The notes beneath the pieces were generated by a model. The model did not search any database and had not been told where the DNA came from. It was given only the letters and a program-made list of their open reading frames with translations. A DNA stretch of 59,266 nucleotides, the filler included, from Dugesia japonica (lineage: Eukaryota): NCBI GenBank assembly GCA_001938525.1. It is 6 parts of 6 records of this genome, joined end to end, with 100 filler letters (N's around TTAATTAATTAA, not from the genome) between each part and the next. Parts side by side here need not be neighbours in the genome. Positions count along the whole stretch, not along the records: positions 30,048 to 39,311 come from MQRL01336937.1; 5 more parts are not named here. One strand, written 5' to 3'. This document shows positions 2,552 through 53,200 of this stretch, piece by piece; positions within the stretch are counted from its first letter, which is position 1; every line of letters begins with the position of its first letter. A program made the translations under genes and the position numbers.

Positions 2552-2804
2552 ATATTATAATATAAATATCAATAATCTAAATTTTGGCGCTAAAATAAAT
2601 AAAGAATTAGATTTTAATCATTTTATTTAAATTATTTATTTTATTATCCGAGTTCATTGTCGCCATATTTGAATTGTTGCTTTAAAAATAGCAAAAACTT
2701 TAAAAAAAGAAAACCTTTATTTAAACAAAATTATTATTCATCTTTAAAATAAAACCAATTTTTTAAAATTACTCTAGTTGTTTATCCGAGCATATCGATA
2801 TACA

Positions 2805-6779: not shown

Positions 6780-7165
6780 AAAGAAATTTGGAAAAACGTG
6801 AAAAGTTTCTTAAGAATGCGGATATAAAGACAAGGTACTATGCGGCTATGTATTGTCGTGCAATAATTTGAAATGCCAAGACGTCCATAGATTAATCCCT
6901 TTCTTCCTCATCTTCCAGATAAACATGTTGATTAATTGTCTGGGTCTCAGGAATAAATTCATAATGTATGAGATCCTTGAAATCAAAGAAAATTATAAAC
7001 ATGCATTTGATTTTTGATTGGAATATCCTTGCAATATTTTAGACGGGTGACATTTCCACTCACCAATCCAGATTTTGCATTTTCGTTTCAGATTCACTAT
7101 CAGAAATCCATGTCTCATCTCTCGTAACAACACTCTCAATTACCAAGTTGTCATTAAATTTAACT
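6780..7165 (-). mobile_element. mariner transposase relic
   Basis: Minus strand reads VVTRDETWI...SKIKCMFIIFFDFKDLIHYEFIPETQTIN, matching mariner TGDETW and SKIKxMxxxFFD motifs. Contains stops. Confidence 0.75.
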
Positions 7166-7199
7166 AATAGGTACAAAGTCATATATAGGCAAATTAAAG

Positions 7200-8557: not shown

Positions 8558-9439
8558 TTTTTTTTTCATTTACTTTGTCTGATTTTTCGATCGCATTGCG
8601 TGCAGTCTTAAACGTATCAATAAAAATTTGGTATTAATAGATGAGGAGGTAAAAAGTTATTTAAGATTAAATACTAAACCAGGTGCCATTTTGAAAGTTA
8701 TGGCTTTAACATTTATACAATTCAAAAGAGAATTAAAAAAACTTTTTATACATCATCTGAAGTACTTGTTTCAAAAATTGCTTTTTTCCTATGAAAATCA
8801 CCTTTCAAAGTATGAGTGAACTGAAACATTCCTCCCTATTCATTATGGATTTCCTTTAAATTTAAGGGTTAGATAGAAAATTCAAAAGTAAGATACGATT
8901 GTATCTTAAAATGCTTAGTCTCCTATAAAATTGAATTTTTTAATTTTTTTTGAAACATATTCGTCCCACTACTAAAATTTATTTAATAGCATATAATTAA
9001 TGGTAATGTTTATTATTACAATCAAAACTGATTGCACCTACAGATTTCCTTTTCAAATTTTTCTTCTTATCAATGTACCTTTCGCCATTGTTATCTTCAT
9101 TATGATATTTTTCAAATATTTCATTACCAATTTAATAAATATATTTTACCTATAGCTTCAACAAATTTTTCCTTCTCTTCTTCTGACGATGCATACCATT
9201 CTTCTTTTTCAATCATTTCTATATCATTTTGTTTAACTTTTTCAACATCTACTAAAATATCGTTACACATTTGTTTTGAAATAATAACTTTAATAAAATT
9301 GTATTCCTAATATATATGTTTTAACAACTAATTAGAATTATCAACCAATCATATGTAAATTAAACATATAATTCATAAACACATAAATGTATATAAGTCT
9401 TAACTTGTAGAAATAAAGCACCTTTTAAAAAATGAAAAT

Positions 9440-10004
9440 ATTAAATACCTCATCGTTAAAACAGGAAGAAATGTTGAAAGAAATAAAGCTTTGGGTACGA
9501 GATAATCAGGAATCAAGTAATGCATATATATGGAACAGATTGCTCGATAAAACATTGGAAAACTGTTTTCAACGTTGAATAATTACTTAACCCTAAATTA
9601 TGAGGATTACATCAATACATGCAAATCAAAGGAAGCCCAAACTCCTAAGATTATAAATATAATTTAAAACTGTTCATCAACAAATTTATGAAGATGTCAA
9701 ACAATGTGGTATTGTTATATAGATATCGGTTAGAGAAGAAATTAGAAGCTGGTCTACACGCGTTCCTTAAAATCCAGATTTTAGACAACTTAGTTATCCT
9801 TCGAAAAGAAGAGTGTAATGAAAAACTTGCATTTAAAATGGAATCATTGGAAAACAACAAAAAAACAATACCTGACATAGACAAACTCAAAAATTAGAAT
9901 TATTATAAAAAACAAGAAAAACTTTGATCGACGCTTTTATTTAAATGAATTCTGAAAAACTATCAATGGTTACATCCAACAATTATTCTCGCAATATTTG
10001 TAGT
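9440..10004 (+). mobile_element. Penelope-like element 3' relic: degenerate GIY-YIG tail plus pseudo-LTR
   Basis: IYE..KQCGIV(YI) and GLHA...LDNLVILRKEE...ESL resemble the PLE GIY-YIG C-terminus. It is followed by a repeat (TCAATGGTTA..CAACAATTATTCTCGCAATA) shared with 14150-14245 and with the hammerhead-bearing element at 54280-54608. Confidence 0.45.
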
Positions 10005-10978
10005 TATTAAAATATAAAATTAAATTTATAAAAATTAAATTTCATACTCAAGATTTTACTATAAAAGTTAAACAGTATAGTTTATAGTACTATACTATAC
10101 TATAGTACTGTTATCAGTGCAATTCAATTCAGTTAACAGTATAGTTGTATTAAAAACCGTTTGTATTTTTATGCTTACTTATGTTTTCTGTGATAATTTA
10201 GAATTATATTAAGAAGCATAAAATCGGTTTAACTAAAACTTTAGGTTTATCTTATTAAATAATTTCAATAATTTTATTAACACGATTTATGAGTAAATCA
10301 ATTATAGTGTTGATAATTTAATTTTAAAAATATTTATTTCTAAAATAAACTTGATTAAAAATATATTAAATATACTAAAGCTTATTTTCTTGGAAAAAAC
10401 AGACACTGGTTATTTATTCAATTCCGATTAATTTCTGAATAATTGCTCAAAACTATAAATTTATTATTAACAATTGGCGCAGAAAAATATTGAAATTATT
10501 AATTACTACCAAAGAATTTCATGAACATAACGATAAAAGGAACCGCAATCATCTGATGATATTTAATTAAACTTCTGTTAATGTGAAATTCTATTAATTT
10601 TCCACACTTCTGCACAGAAAATAATTTACAATGTTAATATGTTTCTGTTATGTTAATTAAAAATAAAATAATATAATTAATCTGCTTTTTCATTTCATAA
10701 CAAGCTGAATTGCTTTCTTAAAAACATGGAAATTTTAAATTAAAAAAAATTATTTTAATTTCAATTTTAAAAATGATTGTTTGGGAATGTAAAATTTATC
10801 GGTTATTAAAGTTATAATTAATTTATTGTTAATTTATTAAACCGTGTCCCGCATAATTATGAGAAATTAAATAAATGGAATTGGTGCAATTGAATATAAA
10901 TGTTACGAAAAAGAATTAAACTACAATACAATCATTTGTTTAAATATGAATTTGTTTTTAAATATAATATAATATAAT

Positions 10979-11023
10979 AGTAGATAGATAGTGGAGCATT
11001 GGAACATTTACGTAATCATCTAA
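10979..11023 (+). repeat. Maverick-like terminus at a contig end
   Basis: AGTAGATAGATAGTGGAGCA matches the terminal motif at 27664, 33328 and 42425. Confidence 0.5.
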
Positions 11024-11123
11024 NNNNNNNNNNNNNNNNNNNNNNNNNNNNNNNNNNNNNNNNNNNNTTAATTAATTAANNNNNNNNNNNNNNNNNNNNN
11101 NNNNNNNNNNNNNNNNNNNNNNN
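11024..11123. other. Artificial contig linker (N44-TTAATTAATTAA-N44); others at 20245-20344, 29948-30047, 39312-39411, 48207-48306
   Basis: Identical 100-nt structure five times; the 12-mer gives stops in all six frames. Confidence 0.95.
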
Positions 11124-11990
11124 CGTTTAAAATCATAACACGAAAATGAAGACGAGTTTATTTCATTTTAAGCAGAAATGACAAATTTTAAATTGAAAAT
11201 ATTCAATAATGAATATTTAAACAAACGGTAAAAATCATTAATGTTGATAATAAGAGTTACACTTTATCAAGATAAATACCAGATCGACCCTCAGCTAAAG
11301 TAGTGTTACCAATGCGCAATATAAATCGAGCAATGCACGTATAAATCAAATTTATTTGTCCTCATTGATCTGAAAGGTTATATAGAAAATGGTCATCATA
11401 CAGATTAACATATAAATCAATCGGAATAATCAGAATTGAAAATATTCACAATGCAAACAAACAATGAAGTACAACATTAACATGTAAGCAACATTATGGA
11501 TTCAATGATTTGAGTACTGATCGAAGCAGTTGGATCAATTCATTTCAACATAATACCAATATATTAAAAATAATTCGAAATTCTATTTTTTTGCGCTAGT
11601 TTATCGTCGTGTTTGAATTCATGATAAATATTATCTTTTTAGTTACGTTGTTATTCAGTTAATAAAGGTATTCAGGGTTTATTGGATGCTAGGCATCGCC
11701 TGTCAAAAATGTCAGTGTGTAAATGAAATTAAATAGTAGTATAAATTCCAAAGTTCTGAAAAACATAATAAACACTTTTGTTAGAAATCCAGCTTAAGTA
11801 GGAGCCTGGCTAATTTCAAGATTATTTGTGGTCCTAATTTTTTACGTTAAGCTGGTTTAACTGTATATAATATTATATTAGTTTTACTAAATATTAATGT
11901 CAATTGGTTTATTATTTATAAAATGTAAACAAGAAACATACCATTTAAACAAAAATTAGCATTTTTAAATTTAAATCATATTAATAGTAC

Positions 11991-12652
11991 TTAATAAAAC
12001 TTTTTCTCGGAAATATGTAATCCATTTATTATAATATTTAGCAAGATTGTTTGAATAGTCTAAATCTTCAATAAATTCAAGTTCAATAGCCAAACACGAC
12101 GCAGCATAGTATTCAAGAAATGATGCTTCGGTTGGTTTGAGAACATTCCAATTGAAATGCTAAAATAAGCATTAATTATAAAAATTGTATATTTATAAAA
12201 TTTTACTTGTAAAACCAGAATTTCGGTGGATTTTAATAAACAACTTTGCATTACATTTTCAAATGGTGCAAGTCGAAGTATTTTTGAAGCTTGCGGCACG
12301 TTAATTTCCACATCATTAACTTTACCTAAATGTATTAATTATTTACTGGCCTTAGAGACCTTTTACTCTTACAAGCGACAGAAAAACAAGCTGCTCCAAT
12401 TAAATACAAACCTTGAGCGTCAGCTTGATGGTCAGCAATAAAATAATCAAACAAAAATACAGCTAAATGATGAGCTTCTACTCCGATTTTGAATGATTTC
12501 ACTAATTTACTTATCCACTGTACAATTATTTTACGATCTCCATTTGTAAAATGCGGAGATTCTCTCACCAAAATTGGGTTTTTTTCTTCAAGGTTTTTCA
12601 AATAACTCAAAATCAATTCATAAAGCCAAACATCATCAACTTCAACAGACAT
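11991..12652 (-). CDS. CCNJ: Cyclin J-like protein, 5' three exons (12373-12652, 12207-12325, 11991-12159)
   Basis: Two 47-nt GT-AG introns give MSVEVDDVWLYE...ESP...AHHLAVFLFDYF...LYLIGAACFSVACKVNDVEINVP...EILVLQHFNWNVLKPTEASFLEYY...YFREKVL. This is collinear with cyclin J as I recall it (QSP..ARHLAVYLLDLF..ASKFEE..VP..FQWNL..PTAAHFIEYY). Further exons not identified before the linker. Confidence 0.8.
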
Positions 12653-13489
12653 AACAAACCATTAATAAATCGTTTGGAGAAATCATTTTAATTAACAAAA
12701 TAATTTTATTAGCAATTTATTTTCAATGTTAAATTTATTGATATATTAAATTGGAAACTAAAACAAACTTATTTGGTTTTTGGCGGAATTTAGTGTTTTT
12801 ATTTTTTATCATACTCTGCATGATAAAATAGTAAAATTCCCTAAGTTTTCTTTAAAAAATAACTATACTTTGAAATTTTTAAGGAAAATAAATTTCTTAA
12901 TCAATTAATCATAATATAATATTACTATGTTGTATATAATGTTAGTATTTGTTCTATACAAAATTTAAAAATAACTTATAAATTACTTATAAAATGTAAT
13001 TTGAAATTTAAAAGAATTTATACAATAATTTTAATTAGTTAAAAAAAAACACTTTTCCAACTCTACATCAGGAAAAAACAGTAATTCTCAATTAGATGCG
13101 GATCCAGGCTATCTTGTAAGGAGCGATTTGAACAAATACTTATGATAAAATATTATTATTATTCGTTACTACTATACAGTGCTTCTATAATTAGTAATGT
13201 CAATTAAAATAATAATATATTACTGCAATATCCTATAAAAAAAGATGGCGAACATATGATACGCGTGTCAGAGGAGACACTCAAAGTCATCGATAGAGAC
13301 NAAAAATTACATAAAACAAATATTTGTCTCTACCAATGGCCAGTAATCATTCAAACAATATAATTACTCACGCTATTCATCATCAATAATGCAATTCTAA
13401 AACCGTCTCTGAACGTGTACATCGGTTTTGCGTACATTGTTTGAATATTGACATTAATATGTAAAAGTTAAGAAATGCGCTAAAAAGAG

Positions 13490-29947: not shown

Positions 29948-30059
29948 NNNNNNNNNNNNNNNNNNNNNNNNNNNNNNNNNNNNNNNNNNNNTTAATTAAT
30001 TAANNNNNNNNNNNNNNNNNNNNNNNNNNNNNNNNNNNNNNNNNNNNTGATTTATTCAG

Positions 30060-31190
30060 ATATGGAATGTTACCAAGGTCGAGATGAAAGAAAGTAAAGT
30101 TCTGCTGTCAAAACTATAATGTATTAACAAAACACCTTCGGATCACCAGAAAACTTCATTCGTAGAAAATTTAGTTAAAAAGCAGCAAATGTCATTGATG
30201 AGAAATACCGAAATGAAAAACAGAGAGCACTATTGCTACTCATGCTACCCAAATACTTGCATAAATTAATCAAAGATATGGCAAAATCTGAATTTTATTT
30301 CTTTGGAAGTAAAGATGAACCAGACAAGTTAAAGTGTATATACTGATAAGGCAACTTGTATAAATATGAAATAAACGATAAACCAGAATGAGGGCATAGA
30401 AAATCTTTTTTTACTTGTTCATTTGTATTAAATATTGATGTAAAAAATATATCAATACTAGTTAATGGTAAAAATCCAGAGGTTGAAAATATTTGTAAAG
30501 CACCTATCAAACTTTATTGCAAAATAATAAAAAACCTAGCTGAAGTATTATTAACAGATAACATAGAATGAGACATAGAAGCTCAAATGAAAACCTTTAA
30601 AGATACACCTAAGCTGATAGAAAAAGCAATAGAACGATTAATTATTATCAAGCTGGAAAATATTAAATTTATTCAGTGTACAACATGTGAAAAGAAAGTA
30701 TAAATACTGAATGGTGTGAAAACATTAAACCAAAATGTATTCTATCAACCAAGGTGTTCAAGACTAAGCTATCAACATTACAGCAATTTACAAAAAACCG
30801 CTTGTAAAGTCAAATGGAGCATGTCACAAGAAAGAATAGAAATGACAATCGATCTCCAAACGATCAAATTGTCAGAAATGCTCAAATTAGGAAAGGAAGC
30901 TTCGAAGGAACTAATCACAAAAACAGCCTAAGAAAAAGGAACTGAAATACTAAAAATGTACGAAGCTTATCATCAATTGCTCCAAGATCTACTCAAAGAA
31001 GGCATCACAGAAGAAGAGTGGGTTCTAATGGATAGTACATCGTAGTATGTCTAGACCAGTTGACTCAAGTTATATTCATTCTATACGGACATTTAAAAAC
31101 TTGTTATAACTCCGCACTAAAACTATTTGAATGTCCTCTTTGTAGAGATCAAATTATACGAAGGGTATGTGGAATAAAAGTTAATCAATA
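30060..31190 (+). pseudogene. Inhibitor-of-apoptosis (BIR + C-terminal RING) pseudogene, apparently intronless
   Basis: ~30203-30430 reads KYRNEKQR...DMAKSEFYFFG...KCIY**GNLYKYEINDKPE*GHRKSFFTCSF, with exact BIR spacing C-x2-(C to stop)-x16-H-x6-C. ~31040-31170 reads VVCLDQLTQVIFILYGHLKTCYNSALKLFECPLCRDQIIRRV, an IAP-type RING. Confidence 0.85.
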
Positions 31191-31789
31191 AAATTGATAA
31201 AATAATGAAGACTATATTTTGTATTTGTTATAAAAAAATTTATTTAAATAAATATCTTTGTTATTTTATTTAAGTAGTTTTTTTTATTAAATGATATGAA
31301 TTATTTTCAAATACGTTTCTCGCTTAAAGAAATATAAGGTATTTATACAGTAATTTATCATAAACTCTATATTACACGGTTGTTATATAAATAATAAAAT
31401 CATAATCCTTATAATTCATGGGTTTCATGTTTTTAAAATTAAATATGTATTTATGAAAAATGTCTTGTTAATTTTATTTAAAATACATTATTTTAAAAAC
31501 TAAATAAATAAAACAAAGACTAAATAATAATACATTTATTTTTTATTAATAATAACAAAAATAGTCTTTATAATGATTACGTTCATCCAAGTGATTCTCC
31601 ATGGCTACCATTAGATTAAACTTTGCACAACCGATACAGTCAAGGTGTGCAAAGATCCGATGCCATGTACTGATTGAAAATAAAACCAGGGAGCCTCGGT
31701 TGACATTCTTTGTCTAATAATCCTCGTTTCTCCAATATGTCTTTAAAAATTCCTAAATTAAATTTATTAATAGAATTTAAAAACCTTAT

Positions 31790-32520
31790 TAAAAATCAAA
31801 CCTGTTGTTATGTAAATAGTAGACTCATAACCCATATAGTGCATAGTTGATAAGTAAATAAAACAATGTAAATATACAAATATTAAACTCATAAACCATA
31901 TATTACCTGGTTACTATGTAAAATTACCTTCATAAGTCCTAAATTACACGTTTGCTATGTAAATAATTCAATCAAAAGTCTTATATTTTACAGTTGTTAT
32001 GTAAATAATACGGTTAACTGTGCAAATAATACCCTCATAAGCCTTATAATACAGGGTTACTGCGTAATAATACACTCATAATCCTTATAATACATGGTTG
32101 TTATATAAATATTACAAGGTAACTAAGCAACAAAATACACACAAAAACCATATTAAACGGTTTTTGTGTAAATATTCCATAAATAATATACTAAGCAAAA
32201 AATATACTCCTAAACATTATATTGCACGGTTAACTTGCAAATAAGAAACTTATAATCTTTTAATACAAGGTAACTATGCAAATAATATACTCAGAAACCC
32301 TATAATACAAGGAAACTATGTAATAATAAACTCATAATCTTTATATTACATGACTGTTGTGTAAATAATACAAGTTAACTATTCAAAAACAAATACACAC
32401 AAAAACCATATTAAACGGTTTTATATGTAAATACTAAATGGTAAATAAGCAAATAATATACTAGTAAACATTATATTACACGGTTAATATGTAAATAATA
32501 AACTAATATATTAAACTCAT
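31790..32520. repeat. Degenerate tandem minisatellite (~40-45 bp unit, TAATACACGGTTACTATGTAAATAATACACTCATAATCCTTA-like)
   Basis: Recurring GGTTA..ATGTAAATAATA..CTCATAA.CC motif; additional units at ~31340-31430. Confidence 0.8.
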
Positions 32521-33237
32521 GGATGTATTATTACATAGTTACAAAACGATTTTAAATTTCCTGGCAAAAAAATTCAGAAAATATCAAGACTCCTCTCTTC
32601 CTACATCGCAAAATATTAAAAACAACCCTTCCCACTTAAAAATACTCAAAATTATCAAAAATACCATTATTTTCTAATAATTCATCGATTTAACCAAAAT
32701 ACAGCATTTTTAGTCCAAATAAAGATAACAAAACATAATTACGTCACACCAGTTCAGTAGAATAATTTCAAATAATTCTTATTAATTTGATAATTGATTG
32801 TTTTTCCAAACATACAATTCTCCCCTTCCATCACATTACCTTTCCAACAATTCATCAACCAAAAAAATACATCAATCCCATAAAAACCTACAGCAACTCA
32901 GAAACACGCTCACAATAACTCATCTTAAAAACTCTAAAAAACTTATTTTCAAGATCTCTAGTTCCTCCTCGAGTCCAAAATTCTTTTTTCACACATACAC
33001 ACACAAAAACCACACACACAAACTCAACTTGGCTTCTTTTTAAAAACCCCTTAGCAACCCAAACACACACAAATTTTAAAAATTAAAAATACACACACAC
33101 TTTCAGGATAAAAACAAACTGATCCGATCAAACAAAATTTTAATGCGATCAAAACCTTTTTGATCCCAGAAATCTTAGAAAAAAAAATCATAACACAAAA
33201 TCATACAACAAAAATTCTTACCACAATCGTAATTTGT

Positions 33238-33328
33238 TTCCGAGCCCACCCCATCCCCGGTTGGTGGGAGAGGTTGCGCGATAACTGCTTTTAAAAAAAA
33301 GTGGGTGATGCGCTAATATCTACCTACT
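33238..33328 (-). mobile_element. Maverick/Polinton-like terminus inserted into a Gypsy RT gene
   Basis: Minus strand reads AGTAGGTAGATATTAGCGCATCACCCACT...GCAACCTCTCCC (AGT start, GC-rich subterminus). Gypsy sequence resumes at 33329 (CGCGATTAATCTGTGTT vs CGCCATTAATCTGTGTT at ~18676). Confidence 0.6.
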
Positions 33329-33970
33329 CGCGATTAATCTGTGTTAGGAAAAACGAAAAGAAAGATATACGATTATTCTTAGATTTTAGACAGCTTAATG
33401 CAATAACAGAAAAACAAGCGTTTCCTTTTCCAAATGTGGACGAAATGCTAGATGTTTTGAAAGGTTCGCAGTATTTTAGATCAATAGACTTTGGAAATGT
33501 ATACTACCATGTGGAACTCAGTGAAGATTCTCAAGAAAAGACGGCTTTTTCGACCAAACAAGGGCAATTTTGTTTCAATAGAATGCCTTTTGGAATTGTA
33601 ACAGCACCAGGTACGTTCCAGGAAATGATGAATAAAGTAATCAGGCAAATAAAAGGAGCGATAGTTTATCTAGATAATATTCTCATATTTACCGAAACAA
33701 AGGAGCAACATTACGAAATAATCAATAAAGTATTAACATAAATTAAGCAGGCTAGTCTAAGAGTTAATCCGGAGAAATGTCAATTCATGAGAAAGGAGAT
33801 CAAATTTTTATGAAACGTTATCAAAAATAAATGTGTCAAAACAGATCCAACTAAAATAGAAGCAATTATTAACTTTAGTAAACCAAAATGCGTTAAGAAG
33901 ATGAGAAGCTTTCTGGGAATTTGCTATTACTATCGAAAGTTTAGTAAAGATTATTCAAAGATTATTAAAG
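33329..33970 (+). mobile_element. Gypsy reverse transcriptase fragment (same family as 16798-20244)
   Basis: LDFRQLNAIT...KTAFSTKQGQFCFNRMPFG...YLDN; high DNA similarity to 18676-19300. Confidence 0.92.
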
Positions 33971-33974
33971 ATTG

Positions 33975-34490
33975 ACTGAATCCCACAGAAAATAAGAAAA
34001 ACTTAACCATTTCCGACTAAATAATTTACCAATTTGCCCTACAATTACCAAAATTGACCATTACCAAGGAAATGATTGATCGATATGGTCTAAACCTAGG
34101 AAATAATGGACCAATATTGTCAAAACCGAGTAAATATTTGACCAAATTGTCCAAAGCTGACCCAAATTAACCATTCATGAGGAAATAAATAACCAATATT
34201 ACCTAAGCAGGGTAAAAAATTGACCAAATCACTCAAAAATGAACCAACTAGACTAATCCCTAGGAAAATGTCAACCAAATCACATAAGAAATTAACCAAG
34301 GTAACCAAACCTAAAGAAAATTTTAACCAATTTTACCTGATTCACCCAAACATTACCAATCCAGAAAAAATAATGGACGAAAATTATCCAAACCAACCAA
34401 CATTTGACCAAAATAACAATTCCCGAGTAAATTTTTGACCAAATCAATCAAAAATTACCCAAATTGACCAAACCCGAGGAAATAACTGAC
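33975..34490. repeat. A/C-skewed low-complexity repeat (CCAAATTGACC-like)
   Basis: Recurrent ACCAAA / TTGACC / TTACC words. Confidence 0.6.
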
Positions 34491-34739
34491 TGACAGTATA
34501 GGGAAAGGAGGATACGAGGACAGACGGGGGTAATCGTAACCATTGGTAACGGTTCCGCGACCGTGATCGCGATGGAAATCGCGACCGTTTCCAAGTTGAC
34601 GGTATCGAAGCCGTGATCGGGACTGTTTCCACGGCAACCGTAGCGGTGACAGAAAAAATAATTTTGCTCAGTAACTAAGGGTGGTGCGTGGAAACATATT
34701 GCGTAATGTGTAACTAAGGTGTTATGGTTTATTTTATTT

Positions 34740-35345
34740 TCGATTTTTGAAAATTTTAAAATGTTAAAAAATTTAGAAAAATATTTGGAATTTAAGGATA
34801 TTTTTTTAAAATTTCTTTTTAGAAAATTGGTGACGATATTAGGTTCTAAATTTTCTATCCTCGTGTCCTCTCATTTTTTTGAGTGACTTGCGATATAGTT
34901 TTTTGAGACATTATTTTTGTAAAGTGAAAAAGATTTTTTTGTGAACTTGTTGACGAAGAATGGGACGGTTGCTATGGTAACATGGAAAGTTATGGTTTTA
35001 TGGGTTTTTCTCGGGAACAAAGAGTACTGGAATTTAGGTAATGGTTAAAGTAGATGAATGGTGTGTGGCCGGAGACAGATGATTAGTTTTAATTGGAAGA
35101 AAAAATTTTTTAATATTTTTGAAAAATCAAAAATATTTTTTAGAAATTTGAAAATTTTAAAATGTGAAAAAACTAAGAAAAACATGTGGAGATTTATGGT
35201 ATTTTTAAAATCTTTTTATGTTGAATGTTAATGACGATATACTGTTCTAAAGATTCTGTCCTCGTGTCCTCCATGTTTTTGAGCAACTTGCGAAATAGTT
35301 TTTGAAAAATTATTTTTGTATTGAAAACAAGATTTTTTGTGAGAA
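34740..35345. repeat. Direct repeat of ~200 bp (34740-34945 and 35147-35345)
   Basis: Shared TTTGAAAATTTTAAAATGT...TGACGATAT...TCCTCGTGTCCTC...ACTTGCGA.ATAGTTTTT. Confidence 0.8.
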
Positions 35346-35849
35346 GAAATGAATAGAAAAAACTTGAAAAAGTTAAATTTTATTTTTGAAAAATTTTATT
35401 TTTTGATAAATTTTAAATGTCCAATATCTAGGACAAATGATATAATTTTATGTCCAAAATTTAGGACAAATTATAAATTAAATTTAAAAAATAAAAAACC
35501 TTTATTTTTGAATTTAAATTTTATTGTTTTAATTTGATTTTTTCTAGGTTAATTATAATGTCCCTTTTCTAGTTAAATTATATAATATTTTCCAAGTTTT
35601 TTTACAGTTCTATACACACACACATTAACAAAATAATGTATTTTTTTATGTATTTAATAAATGACATATGTTTGTCTTAATGTTTTTATTATTATTATTA
35701 TTATTATTATTTACATTTAATTTTAATTACTATTAATAAAAAAAGACATAAAAACCAAATTAATAAAAAAGAAATAAAAACAAAATTAATACATATATTT
35801 GATCTATTTAATCATATTCACATAATATATAAATACATACATACATTTG

Positions 35850-38800
35850 CTCATTCGATCAATATAGAATGGTGACCATATGCCACACTGCTGTTTTTCC
35901 CAGTCCATTTCCTCTTGTCATCAAATGGATCTAGCGCTTTCTTTGATGATTTAATGGTGAAGAGCTGGTGATCACCGATCCAATTCTTGTTTGGTCCACT
36001 CTTTTTTCTTTTCCATTTTCATAGGCATCCACGAAATCTTGATGCTTTATCGATGTTTGTTTTAAGGATACACCTTTACTTTTCATCTTGGTTTTGGTAT
36101 TCGTTTGCATTTAATACGATTTCGGACGAAGACAAATCCATTCATTGAAATTTGATCGGCCTTCATTTTCATCTTTAAATTTACCGATGACCGCAGTTAA
36201 TGTTGATAAATAAAGCGGATCATCTTTTTTGAAATTGGAGGTGTCCAAAAACCGGTCTTCTATCATTGCTGGGAGTAACTGATTTCGCTGATCGACATTT
36301 TTACATTCGAGAAAGAAGCTATCTGTATNNNNNNNNNNNNNNNNNNNNNNNNNNNNNAACCTTTCTCTATAAGTCTGTAACTCCTCATATTGAAGCTTAT
36401 ACATCCTGACTTTCGATAGATCAAGGACAGCTTGACCAATATATGATGGCCTATCTAATGTCACTATATCTTTTACCATCAAAACTGCCACTAGTTCATC
36501 ATCAATTTCGACTGTATCCTGGAATTGTGGCTTGCTGGCATAAGTCAATAACTTCTTAGCATTGTTACAGAGCTTCAAATTAATTCTTCTTAATAAATTT
36601 TCGACAGTTTTTCCATATAAACTGTGGTTTTTCAATTTATAAAAGTCTTTCTCGAACGCGTTGAAACTTTTTGCTCTTTTTTCAGAATTAAATTCAATGT
36701 ACGATTTGAAAATACACACTTGACTGAATGATACTGCTCTTTGTATCTTCTCAACTTTTGCACCCAATTTCATAAATAACTCTGAGAGACGATAATGAAT
36801 GACATAATCTTTCTTCGTTTCATGGGCCAAAAGTAACTTTTTGACTCTACTTCCTGGTGGACATTTATTTATAGAAGTAAGTGGCAATTGGTCCAACTTG
36901 CCGTGTTCCTCAGGTGACATTTCTAAATTTACCTTGAAAAAAGTCCACGTTCATAATTTTCAATATCCAAATAAGGCAGGATTTCAATCAGAGTCTTCAA
37001 ATGTTCTTCGTCGACAATCCATTTGAAATTACCATATGGTAATGGCTGACTCAACGCCCAGCCGTACAGGTTGTTGATGTCAATATATAAGAGACTTGTA
37101 TTGTCATCTGCAATGACCCTATGTTTATTAACAAAGGTCATCCCTCCTCTTATACCTGACTGGAAAAAAAGGGCAACTCCGGGTCTTGTAACAATTCAAT
37201 TTTAAGTGTGCATGTTTTGATCGCCGTAGCCTAACATAAAGCTGGAATTGAAATAAAGTTGGCTGGTTCGAGTCCATCTAGTTCCTTGACTTGAGATCGA
37301 AATTGTTCAATAATATCAGCCAATAAGTATATGTCCAATTTCATATATATTAACATATACTGCAACAAATTAGCACATTTATATTGCTCCCAAACTTGTT
37401 TGGCATCATCATATTCTTCATCGGTGATATTATCCCATTTTGATGGTAAGCTGATGATTGATTTCAGTTCTTGAAATGGTTTAGCTAACGTGTATGGAAA
37501 CACACCTTTTCCTTTTATGATATTTGTGGTGAATGCTCTTTTTGTCTGCGGATAATCTTGCAAGTTTGATGCTAGTGTCTTCAACGATGCTGATAAAAAT
37601 TGAAATAAATCCAAAAATCTGATGGATATGGTTTTTCCTTTGTCCATTTTGATGTATGCAGTTAGTGTTGAAAACATTTCTTTCGTTTGCGGGATCACAC
37701 TTAAATTATAACTGGCAAACTTGCTGATTGCAAGCTTGAGGATATGGTGTAGATCATATCCTTTAAAATTGTGACAAAATACTGGCAACATGCATCTGAT
37801 TTGTCTGCTTATGTTGCATTTATTGCAAGAGGCTCCAAGATATTAACCGCTAATATGACAATTATCTTTTACAAATTTATTATAAATTGTCGTCTTTTTC
37901 TTCTTACATAAATAACATTCATTCGCATTCTCAAAATCATTTGTTGAGATGTTAGAGAAGACATTGGCACTTTTGCATTTTCATACCATGTTGTGACCTT
38001 GGTTTTTGCTATTGACTCTAATGCTGAAATGAAATTTATAATGCATTCTGGTCCAGTAAATTCTTGATAACTGATTGCTCCATTTGGCCCCAGAAGCAAC
38101 AAATCCGCCGATGCTGGCATATGAATACTTTTATGTATTTCTGATGGAATCAACACCGATTCAAAGTCGGCATAAACGATATAAGGTGGGCTGATTGTTT
38201 TGGAAAAATCAGAAAACTCACAATACTTGTTACCTGGCATTTTGTATAATGTTGTAAATTTGTCTTGAGAATTACACATGGTAAAGGTTTGTCGTAGCCA
38301 ATTTTATATCTGAACCCATGCAAGCATTTGTGGCACCAGAACTGACATTGAATTCGGAATCCACTTTCTTTATCTCTTAAATTGAGGAGGCTGTTCAAAT
38401 TTGTTATTGCCAAATAATGCTAGTTGTTGTTATTCTCTAAAAGAAGCAAGTTGATTTGTGTTCCATCTTGATTCTTGCTTCTATAAAACAAGTCAATATA
38501 CAGATTTTTGATAATATCCACTTCATCGGAAATATCCACTTCGTTATTGTATTTGAAGACATTGATGGCATACTGCGGATTATTTCTTTCGAACTTTGGT
38601 ATATTTTTTATTTTCATTGGCATATCTTCTTCTTTTGAAAAATAAATCTCTTATAAATACGGCTCATAGTTGCTCACTCTTTCCCTATGATGTTTGATTA
38701 TGGAATACTTTTAAACAGCTAAAATGCTGTAAATAAAACACAAATTGTCCTCATTCTGTACATTGATTGTTGCATTTGATTTGACCAATGTTTCTGGCGA

Positions 38801-39311
38801 TTTGATGAAGCTTCGACCAGAGAGATACAGAATTACACTAATATTGATTAATTTGAAGCAATAATGGAGGACTTTTACGATTTTCCATCCACTTCCCATT
38901 TCACTGTATTTTCTACCTTCTCTGCCAAAACTGGAGAAATGTTTTCGATGAAGTTTGGGTGAAATTCAACTAGTTTATGAGACACATACCATTCTTTTGT
39001 GTCACATTCTAGATTTTCGAATAGAATTTTGAGACCATGAACGATTTTTCAATTTTCGAGTTTTTCTGCTTGTTCACACACTTTTTCAATAAAGCTTGTC
39101 GGAAGCATAATTTCTCTGGTGTTGTTTCGACTGATATCAAAACACATTTCGATATGGTTGCCGTTCATAATTATTGTGATTTTCTGATAATGGCAGCTTG
39201 GTTTTGATGATTTCGCTACTACCGATCCTTTTCGTTACCGATTATTTTCAAGAACTGTTTGAACTGGATTGACTGATGGACCTGGATTGACTGATGGAAT
39301 TGGATTGATTG
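35850..39311 (-). pseudogene. Maverick/Polinton (adintovirus-like) protein-primed family B DNA polymerase, near full length, disrupted
   Basis: Exonuclease motifs VYADFES and HNFKGYD; KGVFPY; IRGG; LLYIDINNLYGWA; KLKNHSLYGKT; (D)TDSF; LRPKSY; KGV; FDDKR...AYGH. Endonuclease VII-like DNCHISG.YLGASCNKCN insert and N-terminal NEDNLCF motif. Several stops and frameshifts. Confidence 0.93.
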
Positions 39312-40750: not shown

Positions 40751-43700
40751 TTATCGAAAATTTGTTAAATCACCAAACAATTTCGGTTTATTAAATCGAG
40801 AATTAACATTAAAATTTCTAACAACTTTAATATCTTCTTCTTCTTCTTCTGTTGTTGTTGTTGTTGTTGTTGTTGAAGACCACTTATTGTTGTCTCGTTT
40901 TGTGATTGGAGGAAAGAATGCACGCTTTTTACTTGAAATCGTTGAAGATGATGAAGGTGAAACTACACTGCTCTTAATGGAATCTTCAGACGAATTGGAT
41001 TTGTTGAAAATAAGCTTTGATGGTGAATTATAATTCGTTATGTTTCTATCGTATGTTGGTTTTGGTGTAGAATTATTTGATGAACTGTACGGATGAAATT
41101 CGGAATTTTCATACTTTCTTATTAGATTTGCAATATTTGATTTTATATTCGGACGAGAAAGTTTGGGATTTGTAAAAGTGTCAAAATAAAGTTGTTTCTC
41201 ATAGAAAGGATTAATATTTCTATTGTTTCTATTTTCAATATATATCTTATTCAAGCTGCTTGTTGAATGATTCTTTTGTAAACTACCTCGACTACTTGAT
41301 TTAATCAAATCAGTTGTTCCAATTAACGTGCAAATATTCGTTTGACTTGTTGATAAACTTGTTTGATGACTTGCTGGTTTCATACCTCTTGTAATGGAAA
41401 TTTTATGTGTTGAATTAGACAAACTACCTTGACCTTCTATAACAACCTCAGTTTGACTCGATGGAAACTTCCAATTTAATTCGGAATTATTGAAACTTGG
41501 TAAAGCTGCCAATTTTCGATAATCGAATTTATCGGAAGACATATTTTTCGTGACATTTTCTAAAAATTTGGATTTTCCATTATTAACATTTTTAATGAGA
41601 CAATCGAATGAATTTGATCTTTTTAATAAGAGTTTTTCTGATGATATTGTTGCGTATATGCTATTTTCTAATAATTTATAAAATATTTAATAAATTAATG
41701 AAAAAGAACAACAATACCATCTGTAGTATTTATTCCAATTTCTTTACCTTCTAGTTTCTCATTTCTGCGCATAAATTTACGTTAATTAATAATTATCATA
41801 AACAATCTATTTTTCATTACATCATGTATTCCAGTGGTCTCAAACTCAAATCATTTCTCAGACCGTTTTATATAAAATGTGGGCCACATTAATTCTGCAA
41901 CTGACTTTAACACTTTATACCACTGTATACAACGCTATTAGTATTATTAATTAAACGTATTATATTAAATTGAATTTGTTAGATATATCTTATAAAAGTA
42001 ATTTATTTTCGAACAAATTAATAATTTTAATCCATTTCTGTTTGCCGAAATTCTACATTGTGGGTCGCATTTAAGCTCTTTGTGGGACGCGTATTTGAGA
42101 CCCCTGGTGTACTGTATGGTATTATATTATATTACATTGTCAAAGTAAACTGTCTTAAAAATTGATTAAGACCGCAGTATTATTGATTACAAATGATGAT
42201 TTAGAAGGTTGCTTTAGATCAGACCTGGCGAACCCATGGTCAAGGACGAATCCACAGGAGAGCGATGGGGGATATCGCCGCCCATAACCGGATTTCGAAA
42301 AAGATATATAATGATAAGGAGCGACTATCCACGTAAATATTAGGATAGTAGTATGATAACGTAAAGAAAAATAATTAAAAACAATTTTGTATCAAAAAGT
42401 CGAAATAAATAAGATAAAATATTTGTTGATAGATAGTGGCGCACTAAATAACATCCCCGAATTACAAAGTGGTTTAGAAATTCGGTTTGAGATTATGGTT
42501 TAGTAATTTAGAATCTACATATATACTGTAAAAATATTAAATACTAAAATGATAAATTAAATAAATTTTATAATAAAAATTAACCTTATACTTGTTTGTT
42601 TTTTATTGTTATTTTCATTTATTTCCTCGGGAATACGTTTGAGCGATTTCTACCCCTGTTTTTTTTACTCAGCATAAAATTCTCTATTAAATAGATGGGT
42701 TGATGATAAAATTTGAAATACTTTTTATTTTTCGAAAAATCTATGTAAGATATTGAAAAAACCAAAAATGACCCCCGTCAAATTCTTAACAGATTGGTAT
42801 AAAAGTATTTGAAATCAGAGCAAAAAAATTATTTTTGAAAAACTTAGACTGTTCACCCGTATTCCCATGAAAATTTGATATATTGTGAAAGTTACGTTTT
42901 TGGTAATTATTCGCTTTTTTAAAATTTTTAACTATTGATCTCTGAATGATAAAATTAAATATTTTCAAAATTAAGAAAATAAAATAAGGCTTAGATCAAA
43001 AAATGTTTTTTAAAATTTTTTATCAAGTTTACACATTTCAAAAATTTAACTTACTTCCCCAAATGTTCGAGTTTATCTTCGTCGAGAGTTGTGATTGATC
43101 TATTCGATTTATTTAATCACAACTCTTGAAGAAATAAAATCGAAAAATTGGGTCGAAGAAAATTAAATTTTTGAAATTTTTTTTCATATTAAAATTTATA
43201 AAAACATTTTTTGGCGTAAGTCTTAGTTAAATTTCTTCATTTTGAAAACATTTAATTTTATTTTTTTTCTAATTAAATATTTAAACATAACGGACTTATC
43301 TACTGGATTTCCGTGAAAATTAATTAAAAATTAATTTTAGTAAATGTAAACAAAAAATCACTAATTTCCCTTTATTTAAACTAAAAATTTAATTCCCGGT
43401 CAATTGTATAATAAACTACATAATTATTTTAATATAGCCCCCTTATGAAAAATTCCTGGATTTGTCGCTGCCCACGACTCATTGCAAAATAGTTTGTGGC
43501 TCACAAAACAATTTATAAATATCTATAAAACAGAATATTACTAAAATAAAAAATGGATATCTTAATTACAAAGTTTCTTTTTTAGACCCTTTTGCGGCTC
43601 ATTAAATTTTAGAGTTTTTGTTTTCGCTCATTATTTAGTTTCACAGAGATTCCCCAGAAACTAAAGAATGAAAGTTCCAAATTAAATTGCTCTAAAGTTA

Positions 43701-46700
43701 TTAAGTGCTTTGCAACTCACTGGAATGTTGCCAGATCCGTTATAGATATACCACCGACGAATATTTGTGCCAACGAAGGGTGAATGTGAGGAAATGTATG
43801 TTTCTTAAATGTTTTAAGGGTTTTTATTTTTTATGAATGTGTAATTGATGGAAGCTTTATTTGTTTATTGAGAAATTTTAGAAACTCTTGTTTAAATAAT
43901 ATTTGTGGCGGATTTTTAAATACGGAGTAAAATTGTAAGTATTCTTTAGGAACTTTATTCATTTTTGGTCGAAATCAATACGTAAGATAAAATATTTGTA
44001 ACATTTTAATATAATATTTTGTAATATTATTTAAATTTTGTAGATAGTATTTTTATTCATTTATTTATTGTTGAACAATTGTTTTTAGAAATAAATATTA
44101 TTAACAGAAGAAAGTGTTTTTAATGTAGGGTATGTAGGCCCAACCTCTAATAATGAAATTAATGGAAGAATTGAACCAAAAAAGATAAATATTTGAATTT
44201 GAAGTTTATTTCAACTAATGTATTTCGACTGTGCTAAATACGCTTATGTATAGAATTTTCATTGTCAGTGGTGCGGAATATTTTTTATGAATTGAACGAA
44301 ATAAATGTTAATTTCTGATTCTATAAAAAAATTTCACTGATTGATACTATAGACTAAAAATGTTTTTGCTATAACCCTAATTTTATTGTATCTGCCTCAA
44401 TGACTTTATTCAATTCATCATTATCCACAACTTGATGGTGTTGACCATATTTATCATCTTTCAGATCTTCATCTTCCTGTTGGAATCGTTGAAACTATCT
44501 ACCACATTGACTTTGATTGATAACAATATCTCCAGGACATTGCATATGGTTCGGTATGATTTCGCGGTTTGTTTTTTCAAGAAACCAACTTATTCTTTCA
44601 TCAACTATATGTTTATTGTTATTATTTATGTTATTGTTTTATCTGTTTGAAAGTCAGTGTATTTATATTTGGAAAATATTTATTAATTAAAAAAAATAAA
44701 TATCAACTAAAAAATAATAAATATCAATTTTAAAAAAATTAATTTAAATTAAAAACTCTATATAATGAAATGTATAATGTAATCAAATCAGAATGAAAAC
44801 AGTAAAAAAATAGCTTTAAAATTAACAATAATTATAATATTAGGTTAAGCAAAAATGAAAAAAAAATTTTAACAAAGATTTATATTTAATCTATAATTTC
44901 CTTTATTTTCCATGTTTCTAGTAAATGAGCTATACAAATAATAAAATGTCTTTGTGTTTAGAGTCAAAGAAAGCCTTAAAAGGTGATGAAACATCGCTGG
45001 AATCAATGAATGATCTCTAGTCCAAATAATTTCGCAATGACCGAAGTAGCAATGTCAGGAAAATATACAGGATGACTAAAGGCTTTCAAATCTACTTTGT
45101 GTATTTCTATTGTGTTTGATTGTCTTCTGTGGCTTAAAATTGTTATGATGAGGAAGAACACCGTTTCTGTTTTCAAAAATCGAATAGTTATTATGTAATT
45201 CGGTGCTAAAGAAACCATCGATAGCATTACATATCTACTGAAATGGTTTTGCCAGGTGGCTACTATTCGTTAAATTCAAAATCTCGCAATTCTCCATAAA
45301 TCTTTATTTATTATTACAAGGTTTTTGATTAAAGTGACAAAAAGATGAAGAACAATTCATAGTATTCAAACAAATGATCTGAGAAATTTTAATAAAATAT
45401 TTTAAAAATATCGATTTTAATTCAACAAAATATTTATATTTTTAATCATTTTTTTTTTACATAATTTCTTTAAAATAATTTATAATTTTATAATTTTGCG
45501 TAATATAATTTATAAATATATAATGTATCATTTTGGCTTCTGAACTCTTCAGCAGATATCGTCTTTCATGAATGAGTTTTATCACCTCGTATGGACCTGT
45601 GTATCTTTCTTTGTCTTTTGATCGGTTTTCTGCCTTGATTAGCACCTCGTCTCCAACTTGGAAATTTTTCTTTGTTGGTGTCAACTCTTCAAATTATTCA
45701 TTCTTTTCTCCATTATTGAACCTTCTTTCTCTATGTATCTTCTTATCGAATATCACTTCTGCTGGACTTATCCCCAAAGTCTTCTGACTTGTTGCATTTA
45801 GTGTATATTCAATTTCTGGTATTAACTCGGTCCAATTTTTATTTTTTTTATCTTTTAATGTTGCATTGATGTTATCTTTGATCGTTCTGAATTGACGTTC
45901 TACTATTCCGTTTGTATTATGATGATATGCACTTGAAAAGCAAATCATTATATTCATTGAATTTGTCATCTCTTTAAAGGCTTTCGATTCGAAGATCTTT
46001 CCACAATCAACATGTATCGCTTTTGGAGTACTTAATGTCAGTATCCATTTATTGATAATCGTTTTCTTTATTGATTCCTCATCTTGTTTAACGAGGGCTG
46101 TTAAGCATATGTATCTGCTAAATTTATCTATACATTGGGCATCGAAAATGCCTGTCTTTCTGTGATTGCATTCAGTTTTCTAAAATCTGGACATAATCGA
46201 ACGTCTTTCCTTTCTTTTTTCAAAACATACATTAATGGAGTGTTCCATTGCAAATTACACTTTCTAATAATGCCACTGTCAAACAAATTCTTGATAGCTT
46301 CATCGATCTTATTCTCCATGGTTAAATATTTCTTGATTCTCCATTTGTGATTATTTGAGGTTCTGCCATTGTTGTTCTGCCAATAACCCAGTTGTCTGCC
46401 ATGAATATTCCTTTATAAATCATTGTAACTTTCTCTAAATTCTCATTTGGTTTGTTAATCAATATTTTAATTGACTTTTCTCAATCTTTCCCGAATTCTC
46501 AAATTCATCCCATCAACTCTTTCTTCATTGTCTAACAAGCAATCAACTTTTACGCGTTGTATTTCAACCGTTATACTTGGACTACCTTGCATCTTGTCAT
46601 AACTTATCTCTAGTCGCTTTTCTCTTCTATCATCAGAATTTCACTTATCTTCTCCTTTATATCATTGATCATCTGTGGTTAGCCTCTAATCAATNNNNNN

Positions 46701-48559: not shown

Positions 48560-49540
48560 TTACTGTACAGGAGAACATGCCGTGTGTNNNNNNGTTAGCG
48601 GAACTGAAATCTTATGGAAGTACTAATTCGAAGTACTTATGGAAGACAACCGCCAGGTCGTGAATCAATTTATAGATAGAAAGCTCAGTGTCTGGAAAAT
48701 GAAAGTGTAGATAAAGAAAAAAAACTACTGGAAGAAAGAAAATTTCTAAGGAAAAGTTTGATCTTTTTCGTCAATGTTTTTCCAGTAATCCCAAACAATC
48801 AGTACAATATGCAAGCAGAAATTGCATATACAGTGCACAAAGTTATTCCTATAATCATCATCATTAACTGTACAAATTTCGACTTTTTCATAAGTTACAT
48901 GTTTAATGACAAGATTACTCGAGCTAATTTTGCTGTGAATATGCTGAAACGATTAGATAACGATCCGCATTTCATTGAAAAAATCATGTTTGCTGATGAG
49001 GCAACCTTTCATTTGTCAGGAACAGTAAACATAGATAATTGCAGAACATTGGGTTCTGAGAACCTGTCTGTTATTTCAGAGAATGGAAGAGATACTCCAA
49101 AACTAAATAAGTGGTATGGCCTTTTTCATAATGAAATTAATGTTCATTTCTTCTTTGCGGAGAAAACTGTAACATCTGCCAGTTACCATCCTATGATCCA
49201 ACAAAATGTCGTCAAAATTCTCCAAGGAAATAACACTTTCATTCTAAAAAAAAATGGTGCGACGAACAACATGAGTCTTTTGGTTCGTATTTTCCTGGAT
49301 ATGAAGGCGCGGCCCCGTTGCTTTACCACTACGATATATGGATATAATGCGACTGGATTTTTTTCTCAGGGGTTATGTAAAAGATCGAGTGTATTCAAGC
49401 AAGATAAAAACATTTGAAGACTAGGATTACAGATACCATTGCAGCAGTCACCCCGGAAATTCTACAAAATACCTAGGTGAGATTGAATAGAGGCTTGGCA
49501 TGGTATGCACAAAAATTGGTTACAATGTTGAAAATTATTG
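48560..49540 (+). mobile_element. Tc1/mariner-superfamily transposase relic (DD41D/rosa-like)
   Basis: IMFADEATFHLSGTVN..NCR..GSEN...RDTPK...FFFAEKTVT and a downstream LDFF..G remnant; frameshifted. Confidence 0.8.
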
Positions 49541-50225: not shown

Positions 50226-53200
50226 AACTCTGGTATTTTCAATGATGGCAACAAAAATGTTGTTAACATATGAGATAATTTAGAAACATGTTTCTTTTCA
50301 CCATCCAAAATATGATTAACAATCTATAAATGAATTATATATTAAGATCTAAATTCAATTATATTTACATCTGCTTGAAAAGTTAACAAATGACTGTCAC
50401 TTGATGTTTTAACATCTGATTGAGGTGATCCATCTTTTTCCTCATCTACAATTTATAGATTATTTCCTCATTTTCATGCATTTAATTCTAATTAATAGAA
50501 TATCAAATGAAATTAATCGAGATCAATTTGTATGTTCAAACAAAAACTACCATAATATAATTTATATTTTTCACAAATTCATTAAGTCGAATTACAATGG
50601 AGTACCTTATTGAAAATTTTTCCAATTACCAAAATTAATGGAAACAACAAAAAATTGCATAATTTTTTTAATAAAATGTGAATTTGTTAAGTTTTCTTTA
50701 AATTTAATTTTATGTTAAAATTTTCTTTAAATATAAAATACAGTATAAACATAAAAACCAAATTAAATACCGATTATTTTGTATTTGTGAAATATTGGAA
50801 AAGATTTTGTTAAATATTATGATTCGTTTGATTTCTACCTAAAATGAATACTTTAATTAAGCAGATAAAAAATGGGAGCTCCAATTTAGAATTTTATTAT
50901 TTTCATTTTTGGTAAAAATATGTATCATCGTGGTATTTTTAGATAATACATTAATCATATTGGGTTGTCCGGAAAGTTCGTGACGAGTTATAACAAAAAT
51001 TCCAAAGTAACACATTTAAATTTCAAAATGCATTTATTAAATTAAACATTTGCCATTTTGATTCGCAGCCTTTCTCCATCTTTCATGCAACTTAAAGATT
51101 TCATTTTCCCCGAATATATCAGGTTTTCTGGCGAAAAAAATATCAAGATGATTTTCTATATCAATCGAAGAGGTAAATTTTCGACATTAAGGGAATCTTG
51201 ACAAGATATATATATATATATATATATAAGTGGAAATATGTAAGTGGAACCCGCATAAAGTGAATAAGGCGGATGGAGTAGAACTTTCCAACCGAGCTCC
51301 AAACCCTTTTCTAGTAGCCAAAGACGCACAAGGGCGTTTATTGTCCTGAAAAACCAGAACTCGGCTCTATTGCCAAGAGCTCGAAGTTTTCTTTCAATTT
51401 ATTTGTTTAATTCGTCTAATTACAAATAATACGTTTCGGAATTTATCGTCTGATTAGTTGGTATAAGCTCATAAAATAAAATTATTTGCCAGTCCTATCA
51501 AACACCAATCATAACTATTTACGAATGAAGACCGGCTTTTGCGGTGGTTAATGATCTTTTCCGCTGAGCATTATTATAAATGATCCATTTATCATCTCCT
51601 GTCTCTACTTGCTTCAAAAATGATGTCACTTTGTTTCGTTTATAGAGCGACTGTTAGATGTTGATGTCATCCATCAAGTTCGTGTTGAATCCATATATCT
51701 AAACGGTTTATATATCCAAGCTTCAATTTTAACTAAAATGGTGGTTTTCAGTATATTTAACCTTTCTACTGATTCTTATTCTCGATAAGTGTTTTGCTTT
51801 GATCTTCATCAGTGGTGCTGGGTCGTCTCAGAAGTTCCTTGTCGTCAAGGTTAAACTCATCAGCTTTAAACCTAGCAAACCCCTTCCGAACAATTCTCAG
51901 ATAAAGCACATTTACCATAAACAGCTCATAATTTTTTTGCTGCTTGTGTAAAAAAAACCATCAAATTCTTATAATGAATTTTATTTTCTTCAATATTTAA
52001 ATTGGTGTAATAAATTGTGATGATTATTTTACCAAATCATTATATCTTTATTAATTCACATGTCATTTGCCTTTTAGATAATGTATATATGTAATTTGTT
52101 TTCATTCATTCCTTTATATTAAAACCTGTTTAATTCAACACACTGACAATCAGCACGAACTTTCCGAACAACCCAATATTAATTCATTAATTACTTATAA
52201 TTATACTAGCAGTTTATATAACATCGCATTTATAGTTGAAAACGTAGCATGTGTAGAGCCATTAACTTTTAGAATTTAATTGAAAATAGTTTTCAATAAA
52301 ATATTACCTATATTTTTAAAGAACTATTTATAAAATATTTATTTAATAAACACCAAGTGGTTTGAGAAATCTCCTTAAAATAAGAAAATAGATCATAAAA
52401 AAATTTCAATGAAAATCGATTTTCTGATTGTGAAATTTTGTTATTGGGTTGCAACATAATTTTAAATGATTTTATTTTTTATTGCAATTTGTAGTTTATT
52501 TATCCACAACATTTTTATTTTTGAAAAAAACATCATTAGAAATCCTTTTTGGGCTCTACAAAATCTCAGTAATTTTATGTCAGTAAATTTTATTCAAATC
52601 CTAAAGCTTTTAGAAATGTAATGCCAAGTAGATAAGAAAACAATATTTTAGATATCTACTTTTATTTGCTTTTAATGAGGTCTAAAAGTTTCAGAAGTGG
52701 TCCGAGATATTTGTGCTGTGTACGGAGAAAGTGCAATGGCCGGGAGTACTACAAACGATTGCTTCACAAAGCTGCGAAATGGCACATTCAACCTTCAAGA
52801 TAATGGCCACTCCGATCGACCACCCAAGTTCGATGAGTTTGGAAAACTCATCTGATCATTAATATCAGAACTCGAATTCATTACAAAATTTATTCAAACA
52901 AAAACTATGCTTAACACTATTTGTTTATTCAAACAACTTAAAATCTCGTATTTTCATTGGTGATCATTTATTTAAAATTTTAAATCGAAATTTTATTTAT
53001 TTAAAATTAATTTACATTAATTTATTTAAAACATTTTATTTATTTATTTAAAATTTAGGACAAAATTTTCGTTCACGTTAAAAATTTTATTTATTAAAAA
53101 TTTTACTTTATAAATTCAATCGTTATTTTTGAAATTTAAAATTGAAACTTTTATTTATTTAATTAGCCAAATTTCCGTTTACTCAAAAAATTTAATTTAT

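Follow-up and report, generated by a model that had tools for sequence, protein, structure and literature searches.

The stretch from 30048 to 33328 of the window, by which we mean the whole 59,266-nucleotide sequence analyzed (scaffold pieces of an AT-rich eukaryote joined by N44-TTAATTAATTAA-N44 linkers), is in our view, held with moderate confidence, the right end of a Maverick/Polinton element that was inserted into the reverse transcriptase (RT) gene of a Gypsy element and that carries an inhibitor-of-apoptosis (IAP) gene taken from a spliced host transcript. The evidence supports the view that a mobile element carries the IAP gene as cargo, because the gene exists in multiple copies that have a 3′ flank in common, has lost an intron that a relative possesses, and has no reads in the RNA run X10. 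An initial annotation had proposed an endogenous polinton-like virus equipped with a suppressor of host defense; the cargo part of that proposal is upheld, and the Maverick identity of the element is likely, with the terminal signature as its single line of evidence.

The decayed IAP gene occupies 30062..31191 on the plus strand, as delimited by Pfam and protein alignments, and lies on the scaffold piece 30048-39311, which contains one gap (29 N at 36329-36357); its 5′ end may be cut off by the scaffold end at 30048. From 5′ to 3′ on this strand it encodes a BIR domain (30224..30427, with the PF00653 stretch at 30269-30427 and the start set by alignment to the protein P0001), a second, degenerate BIR-like domain (approximately 30572..30757, aligned to the middle of P0001, P0010 and P0128), a putative UBA-like helical stretch (approximately 30833..31003) and a RING finger of the C3HC4_3 family (31042..31161, in the reading frame after the frameshift). 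In the HMMER comparison that the initial annotation had recommended, the first BIR, read in the frame from 30050 onward with X at stops, matched PF00653 above its cut-off (E 2.7e-7, 31.5 bits against 22.9), and the RING, read in the frame from 30049, fell just short of its own (PF13920, E 6.6e-6, 26.3 bits, 0.7 below the curated cut-off of 27). The RING is 50% identical to that of P0001, and the reading as a whole is colinear with P0001 (33% identity over 326 amino acids, plus the RING) with no intron-sized gap. The annotation of a compact BIR and RING pseudogene without evident introns is thereby borne out, although it had overlooked the two middle segments. The middle of P0001, P0010 and P0128 falls on the last BIR of XIAP in hhalign comparisons, and the segment 5′ of the RING is colinear with the pre-RING region of XIAP, the XIAP protein used for this comparison carrying PF21290; a Pfam scan found no UBA match of its own for 30833..31003. 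Sequence comparison therefore suggests the layout BIR, degenerate BIR, UBA-like, RING, in which the UBA label is the conditional part. This copy does not have the open frame of a working inhibitor: it is broken by nine in-frame stops and one frameshift near 31040, and several zinc ligands have been lost.

A phmmer search of 1.84 billion representative proteins returned 265 matches, and P0001 was the only protein among the 150 listed that matched nearly the whole IAP query; a word-index protein search with the decayed frame gave no match among 400 candidates. P0001, P0010, P0061, P0128 and P0170 share the segment preceding the BIR, the middle region, or both, with the window IAP, and the profile of these relatives is colinear with XIAP through the BIR, second BIR, pre-RING region and RING (hhalign probability 99.7). 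P0128/P0151, P0170 and P0171 are intact IAPs of the same subfamily, found on contigs of 15,990, 6,828, 6,672 and 3,474 bp.

The loss of the intron was detected by comparison with L003, which is 66% identical to P0001 and was the sole match of one metagenome scan (1,170 bp, 27% GC, no neighboring gene). Its homology stops at a GT donor immediately after the BIR motif GFYY (L003 890-920), whereas the window IAP reads straight through the corresponding place. Because this close relative has an intron that the window copy lacks, the IAP appears to be host-derived, and it is likely that it descends from a spliced host-type gene; L003 is a relative and not a proven parent. In addition, the sequence of P0110 resembles the following exon, flanked at either end by read-through into an intron. 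L003 itself lies on an AT-rich eukaryotic contig. A tree of BIR domains, built from 67 of 167 BIR rows and 93 columns with a rough, unsettled bootstrap, grouped the window IAP with P0001 and L003 at 98/91, that is, with eukaryotic, intron-bearing IAPs, on a branch of 0.97 as opposed to 0.17 and 0.34. The initial annotation had called for a tree against host and viral IAPs; no labeled viral or baculoviral IAP was included in the present tree.

Evidence for a multi-copy family came from contigs of three DNA runs (three studies), which were placed on the window at 80% likeness, the figures being drawn from 40 listed rows of 648. At each of the 18 IAP places listed there were 2-16 divergent contigs, so that the gene is not single-copy; a single copy would, according to the initial annotation, have refuted its proposal. 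Bin depth on the IAP was 84-474, compared with approximately 4 for contigs identical to the window copy, from which we roughly estimate some tens of copies, bearing in mind that summed contig depth is not equal to copy number. The copies are 80-90% identical. Four of the nine stops as well as the frameshift are private to the window copy, because most or all of the other listed contigs read differently at these positions. As is expected of a Maverick gene, the IAP is thus an intronless gene in dispersed multiple copies. The 3′ flank (31192..31804, with minisatellite units at 31331-31428) is likewise common to other copies: 5-8 contigs cover 31318, and one divergent contig, spanning 31071-31355, joins the end of the RING to the first minisatellite unit. 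Farther along the arm, depth at non-repeat sites is comparable in magnitude to that of the gene (143-158 at 32423 and, in the tip, 132-197 at 33292). RNA evidence is limited to the single run X10, of which about a quarter was read; there were no reads on 30048-31103, and the Gypsy fragment next to the element had a depth of 58-111 in the same run. Within the 3′ flank, 31549-31740 (minus strand) forms a GC-richer island with a 55-codon open frame that has no Pfam match. The island varies more from copy to copy, and a small accessory gene in convergent orientation may have left it behind.

These observations bear on the possibility that the gene is a processed host-IAP pseudogene (an origin that the initial annotation had itself named as damaging), multiplied by segmental or satellite-linked duplication, that lies 2 kb from the end of an unrelated element by chance. 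Loss of the intron relative to L003 is what such an origin predicts, and passages of PMC13159474, PMC8917759 and PMC8905726 indicate that intronless, dispersed IAP duplicates are common in invertebrates; moreover, a bridge from gene to terminus was not seen in another copy, and the genome is repeat-dense. Nevertheless, no poly-A tail follows the gene, copies that are 80-90% identical share the 3′ flank and the minisatellite unit, the depth at the tip approximates that of the gene, and a near-identical spliced parent was absent from X10 at 80% likeness. We therefore regard this origin as distinctly unlikely, the intron loss being the part of it that stands.

Beyond the 3′ flank, the arm of the proposed Maverick consists of a 736-bp minisatellite block (31805..32540, with a period of 20-21/41-42 bp), an A/C-skewed subterminal tract (32550..33230, GC skew -0.64 and AT skew +0.22, hence G/T-rich when read inward from the end) and a GC-rich tip (48% GC) that ends in the terminus (33231..33328, minus strand, inward sequence AGTAGGTAGATA). 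The minisatellite of approximately 730 bp noted in the initial annotation is present but is not peculiar to the IAP element, as its summed contig depth of 34,000-350,000 marks it as a genome-wide high-copy repeat. The tip is likely the right terminal inverted repeat (TIR) end of a Maverick. It abuts a fragment of Gypsy RT (33329..33955, plus strand, RVT_1) that is 87.6% identical to 18676-19300, and the junction 33328/33329 is precisely where matches to the Gypsy copy at 18676 go up from 1/10 to 9/10; therefore, the insertion ends there, and the description of an A/C-skewed tract and an AGTAG terminus that cuts a Gypsy RT gene at this junction proved accurate. The terminus truncates the target fragment on the 5′ side, and a further cut lies at approximately 33961, where contig ends are loose.

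The Gypsy RT that adjoins the IAP arm raises the question of whether the IAP could be a piece of a giant Gypsy-like long terminal repeat (LTR) retrotransposon of the Burro type. LTR elements characteristically end in CA, and the IAP element end reads CT. The RT is cut in the middle of its domain by the terminus, and an ordinary, compact sister copy is found at 17.2-20.3 kb. Passages of PMC6431247 describe the planarian Burro elements as giant Gypsy elements that carry a BIR in their polyprotein and that encode BCL2-like and RING-type motifs, and in this respect, as large mobile elements with a BIR domain, they resemble the element of the window. However, the BIR of Burro is embedded in a polyprotein of approximately 4,900 amino acids, in an element with LTR ends that moves by retrotransposition, whereas the window contains a free-standing BIR-RING gene with its own RING and stop codon at an AG-type DNA terminus. 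A Burro-type origin was largely refuted by the cut junction at the terminus, and we consider it extremely improbable.

Ends related to the 36-nt tip recur in the window. The local match at 27627-27663 scores 40, compared with a maximum of 29 in 100 shuffles, and further related ends lie at 10979-11023, 42424-42460, 43304, 57172 and 57399, together with a degenerate left end at 42902. Five of seven related ends, the IAP terminus included, start with AG, and their flanks vary; the IAP element thus has the AG-starting terminus that characterizes Mavericks. Two pairs of these ends delimit short TIR elements, 57172-57399 (228 bp) and 42902-43304 (403 bp), each with a 4/6 match in the 6-bp flank, which is the best or tied-best among lengths 2-10. 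Both are non-coding, with long TIRs starting AGTA, and may have arisen from the AGTAG-end family as miniature, non-autonomous elements. Vertebrate Mavericks are described in part of PMC8097293 as having (AGT)2, (AG)3 or (AC)3A ends, target-site duplications (TSDs) of 6 bp, and accessory regions that flank the core. The fit of the AGTAG-end family to Maverick/Polinton ends is suggestive, not exact. The related end at 27663 interrupts a repeat that is also present at 22928-23037.

Several points weigh against our interpretation. In vertebrate Mavericks the canonical end motif is (AGT)2 or (AG)3, from which that of the IAP element differs, and in a genome rich in AT a flank match of 4/6 carries little weight. 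TIR elements of 228 and 403 bp are more typical of cut-and-paste transposons. Neither a second TIR nor a TSD is visible for the IAP copy; Mavericks have paired TIRs of 100-1,500 bp, and no partner was found within the window. Pfam searches of the frames and open reading frames (ORFs) examined, those of 30048-39311 included, detected neither a retroviral-like integrase nor a packaging ATPase, a capsid protein or a protease (adenain) that would lie within the element or at either end of it. No listed contig links the IAP to the terminus in another copy, the longest pieces being shorter than 500 nt. Finally, expression can hardly be judged from one RNA run, and the window itself may derive from run X1. 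The visible part of the element measures just 3.3 kb, its interior being lost beyond the scaffold end at 30048. An rve match at 45694-46179 is accompanied by pieces of Gypsy RT and SH3. Pfam scans with long six-frame queries lose sensitivity, as one of them missed a pPolB gene that a frame-wise scan found. A terminus-like pattern in two viral contigs was judged a chance occurrence, as it lies inside coding-like sequence.

A rival reading has a non-Maverick carrier, either a gene-capturing DNA transposon of a Pack-MULE-like TIR or foldback type or a Helitron, that amplified a host IAP retrocopy. In its favor, related ends do delimit short TIR elements, the abundance of the minisatellite is extreme, no Maverick core gene lies within the visible element, and duplication of IAPs by DNA transposons has been proposed in other animals in a passage of PMC13159474. 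Conversely, an AG start without target preference and a best flank match at 6 bp fit Polintons, and the drift to 33% identity, along with other copies that lack the breaks of the window copy, suggests a maintained element gene instead of passive cargo. Helitrons end in CTRR after a hairpin at the 3′ end or begin with TC at the 5′ end, and they insert between A and T; in the present case the terminus shows neither CTRR followed by T nor an A|TC junction, and the related ends form inverted pairs. A carrier other than a Maverick is, in our judgment, fairly unlikely.

The initial annotation had based its Maverick argument largely on linkage to pPolB. A near-complete, decayed pPolB gene is indeed present at 35869..39297 (minus strand; PF03175, tblastn with P0157 and P0159) on the same scaffold piece, but only its last ~460 bp are on the same gap-free contig as the IAP, so the statement that both share a contig holds only in this narrow sense. 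As an argument, the linkage fails: pPolB lies beyond the terminus of the IAP element, which faces it, and is separated from the IAP arm by the Gypsy fragment, a separate high-copy repeat with a period of approximately 31 bp (33961..34490), and a second, unrelated arm. The repeat is not part of the IAP element and also cuts the Gypsy RT. The second arm (34495..35350, plus strand) is a candidate terminus, with an AGTATA start, a tip of 46% GC and an inward G-skew; blastn at E 1e-3 did not match it to the IAP arm, and it is likely the left end of the element that bears pPolB. Its tip at 34495 is palindromic, and an 18-nt motif at 34507 is repeated in inverted orientation at approximately 34856 and 35255. 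The layout implied by the initial annotation, in which a single rearranged Maverick contains both the IAP arm and pPolB, is compatible with their position 2.5 kb apart on one scaffold piece and with the build of both arms from a GC-rich tip and a skewed tract. It is very improbable in light of the orientation of the terminus, the two other insertions between the arms, and the mismatch of the arms themselves, since the TIRs of one element should match. More likely, pPolB at 35869-39297 is part of another Maverick, distinct from the IAP element.

A second, older pPolB fragment (15403-16759, minus strand) is 32-45% identical to P0159 and comes from a different Maverick lineage from the gene at 35.9-39.3 kb. 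Two pPolB genes in a 59-kb window show that Mavericks are no rarity here; a Maverick identity of the IAP arm thereby gains in prior probability, but adjacency to pPolB becomes uninformative. Viral contigs scanned with the pPolB ORF, with P0128 and with the IAP alignment yielded no confirmed loci, and those scanned with the pPolB alignment yielded three (L004, L005 and L006). By-eye labels make L004 (26% pPolB identity) a candidate distant polinton-like virus: its interval 1-12033 encodes pPolB, capsid-like proteins of 580 and 411 amino acids, a protease-like protein and several fiber-like ORFs. No IAP was seen by eye among these ORFs, and no family scan was made.

We propose that an ancestral element took a copy of a host BIR-BIR-UBA-RING IAP mRNA into the accessory region next to its TIR, that the captured gene would have been kept long enough to drift to approximately 33% identity from its nearest known relative, that the IAP-bearing element spread to some tens of copies, and that the window copy decayed after its insertion into the Gypsy RT. 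The IAP protein might keep a cell alive for longer while the element replicates in it. In IAPs of the XIAP/DIAP type, the BIR binds caspases or IAP antagonists and the RING ubiquitinates them, and by analogy the element IAP would have acted in the same way.

In its domain order the window IAP resembles host IAPs of the XIAP, cIAP and DIAP2 type, which are colinear BIR-BIR-(UBA)-RING proteins and among whose nearest relatives are P0001, L003, P0010, P0061, P0128 and P0170, while it differs from them in being intronless, long-branched, multi-copy, broken and without reads in X10. Baculovirus IAPs offer a second parallel, since there too a DNA virus has retained intronless BIR-RING genes of host origin, although baculoviruses are free lytic viruses; a passage of PMC4061559 also mentions baculovirus IAP genes. 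The nearest precedent is found in adintoviruses. Starrett et al. (2021) note in one sentence that they observed adintovirus homologues of Bcl2 and IAP, and the portion of PMC8502044 that holds the supplementary maps labels an IAP twice, in a way not reliably tied to a genome. An IAP, called a "baculoviral IAP" in a legend, is also among the leafhopper adintovirus ORFs in part of bioRxiv 10.64898/2026.07.28.741253. Like these adintoviruses and Mavericks, the window has an intronless IAP homologue as a non-core gene near an element end with an AG-starting terminus. It differs in that its element shows no core genes in the visible part and its IAP copy is decayed and, in a comparison by description only, belongs to a BIR-degenerate BIR-UBA-like-RING subfamily with an intron-bearing relative. 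The initial annotation's emphasis on IAP cargo as a surprise is accordingly not warranted, since such cargo is already in print for adintoviruses in the passage of PMC8502044 cited above, and the window element is likely a new example of a published kind. No description of this IAP family was found in literature on polintons or Mavericks with an IAP or on planarian IAPs with transposons. What the element adds, within the little-studied pattern of adintovirus IAPs, is a traceable host origin combined with a multi-copy family.

The intron-bearing host-type relative, the multi-copy family and the cut insertion site together make the direction of capture and the selection on cargo measurable from natural copies. 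Retention of an apoptosis inhibitor suggests that such elements face a cell-death defense, as viruses do, and Mavericks may be the true carriers of some of the expanded intronless IAPs that have been classed as host retrogenes. A further idea, which we advance as a tentative possibility, is that a Maverick lineage captured the mRNA of a RING-type IAP from its host lineage and has since maintained it as a viral gene in several hosts. If so, other members that reside in elements would include P0128, on its 15,990-bp contig, and P0170. Mavericks are reported to have expanded in Dugesia in a passage of bioRxiv 2025.12.11.693146, and with a planarian host, at which the low GC, the 47-nt intron and the repeat make-up may hint, Burro and Mavericks, as two unrelated giant elements, would have independently acquired BIR modules in an animal whose body depends on stem-cell division. 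Furthermore, RING-IAPs are reported to have been lost in platyhelminths in sections of PMC13159474, PMC8917759 and PMC8905726, and under the same idea the intron-bearing relative would show that they survive in free-living flatworms.

Elsewhere in the window, a host cyclin gene identified by Pfam (12000-12661, minus strand) contains one 47-nt GT-AG intron at 12160-12206, in agreement with the earlier statement that host genes here have introns. The protein-cluster Atlas returned only generic IAP and cyclin clusters. A 311-codon open frame at 40751-41686 (minus strand) has no Pfam match. Other decayed elements lie at 17231-20292, 45460-46412, 195-4001, 48680-49417 and 52679-52852, and comprise two Gypsy copies, hAT pieces, a weak DDE_3 match and a mariner helix-turn-helix.

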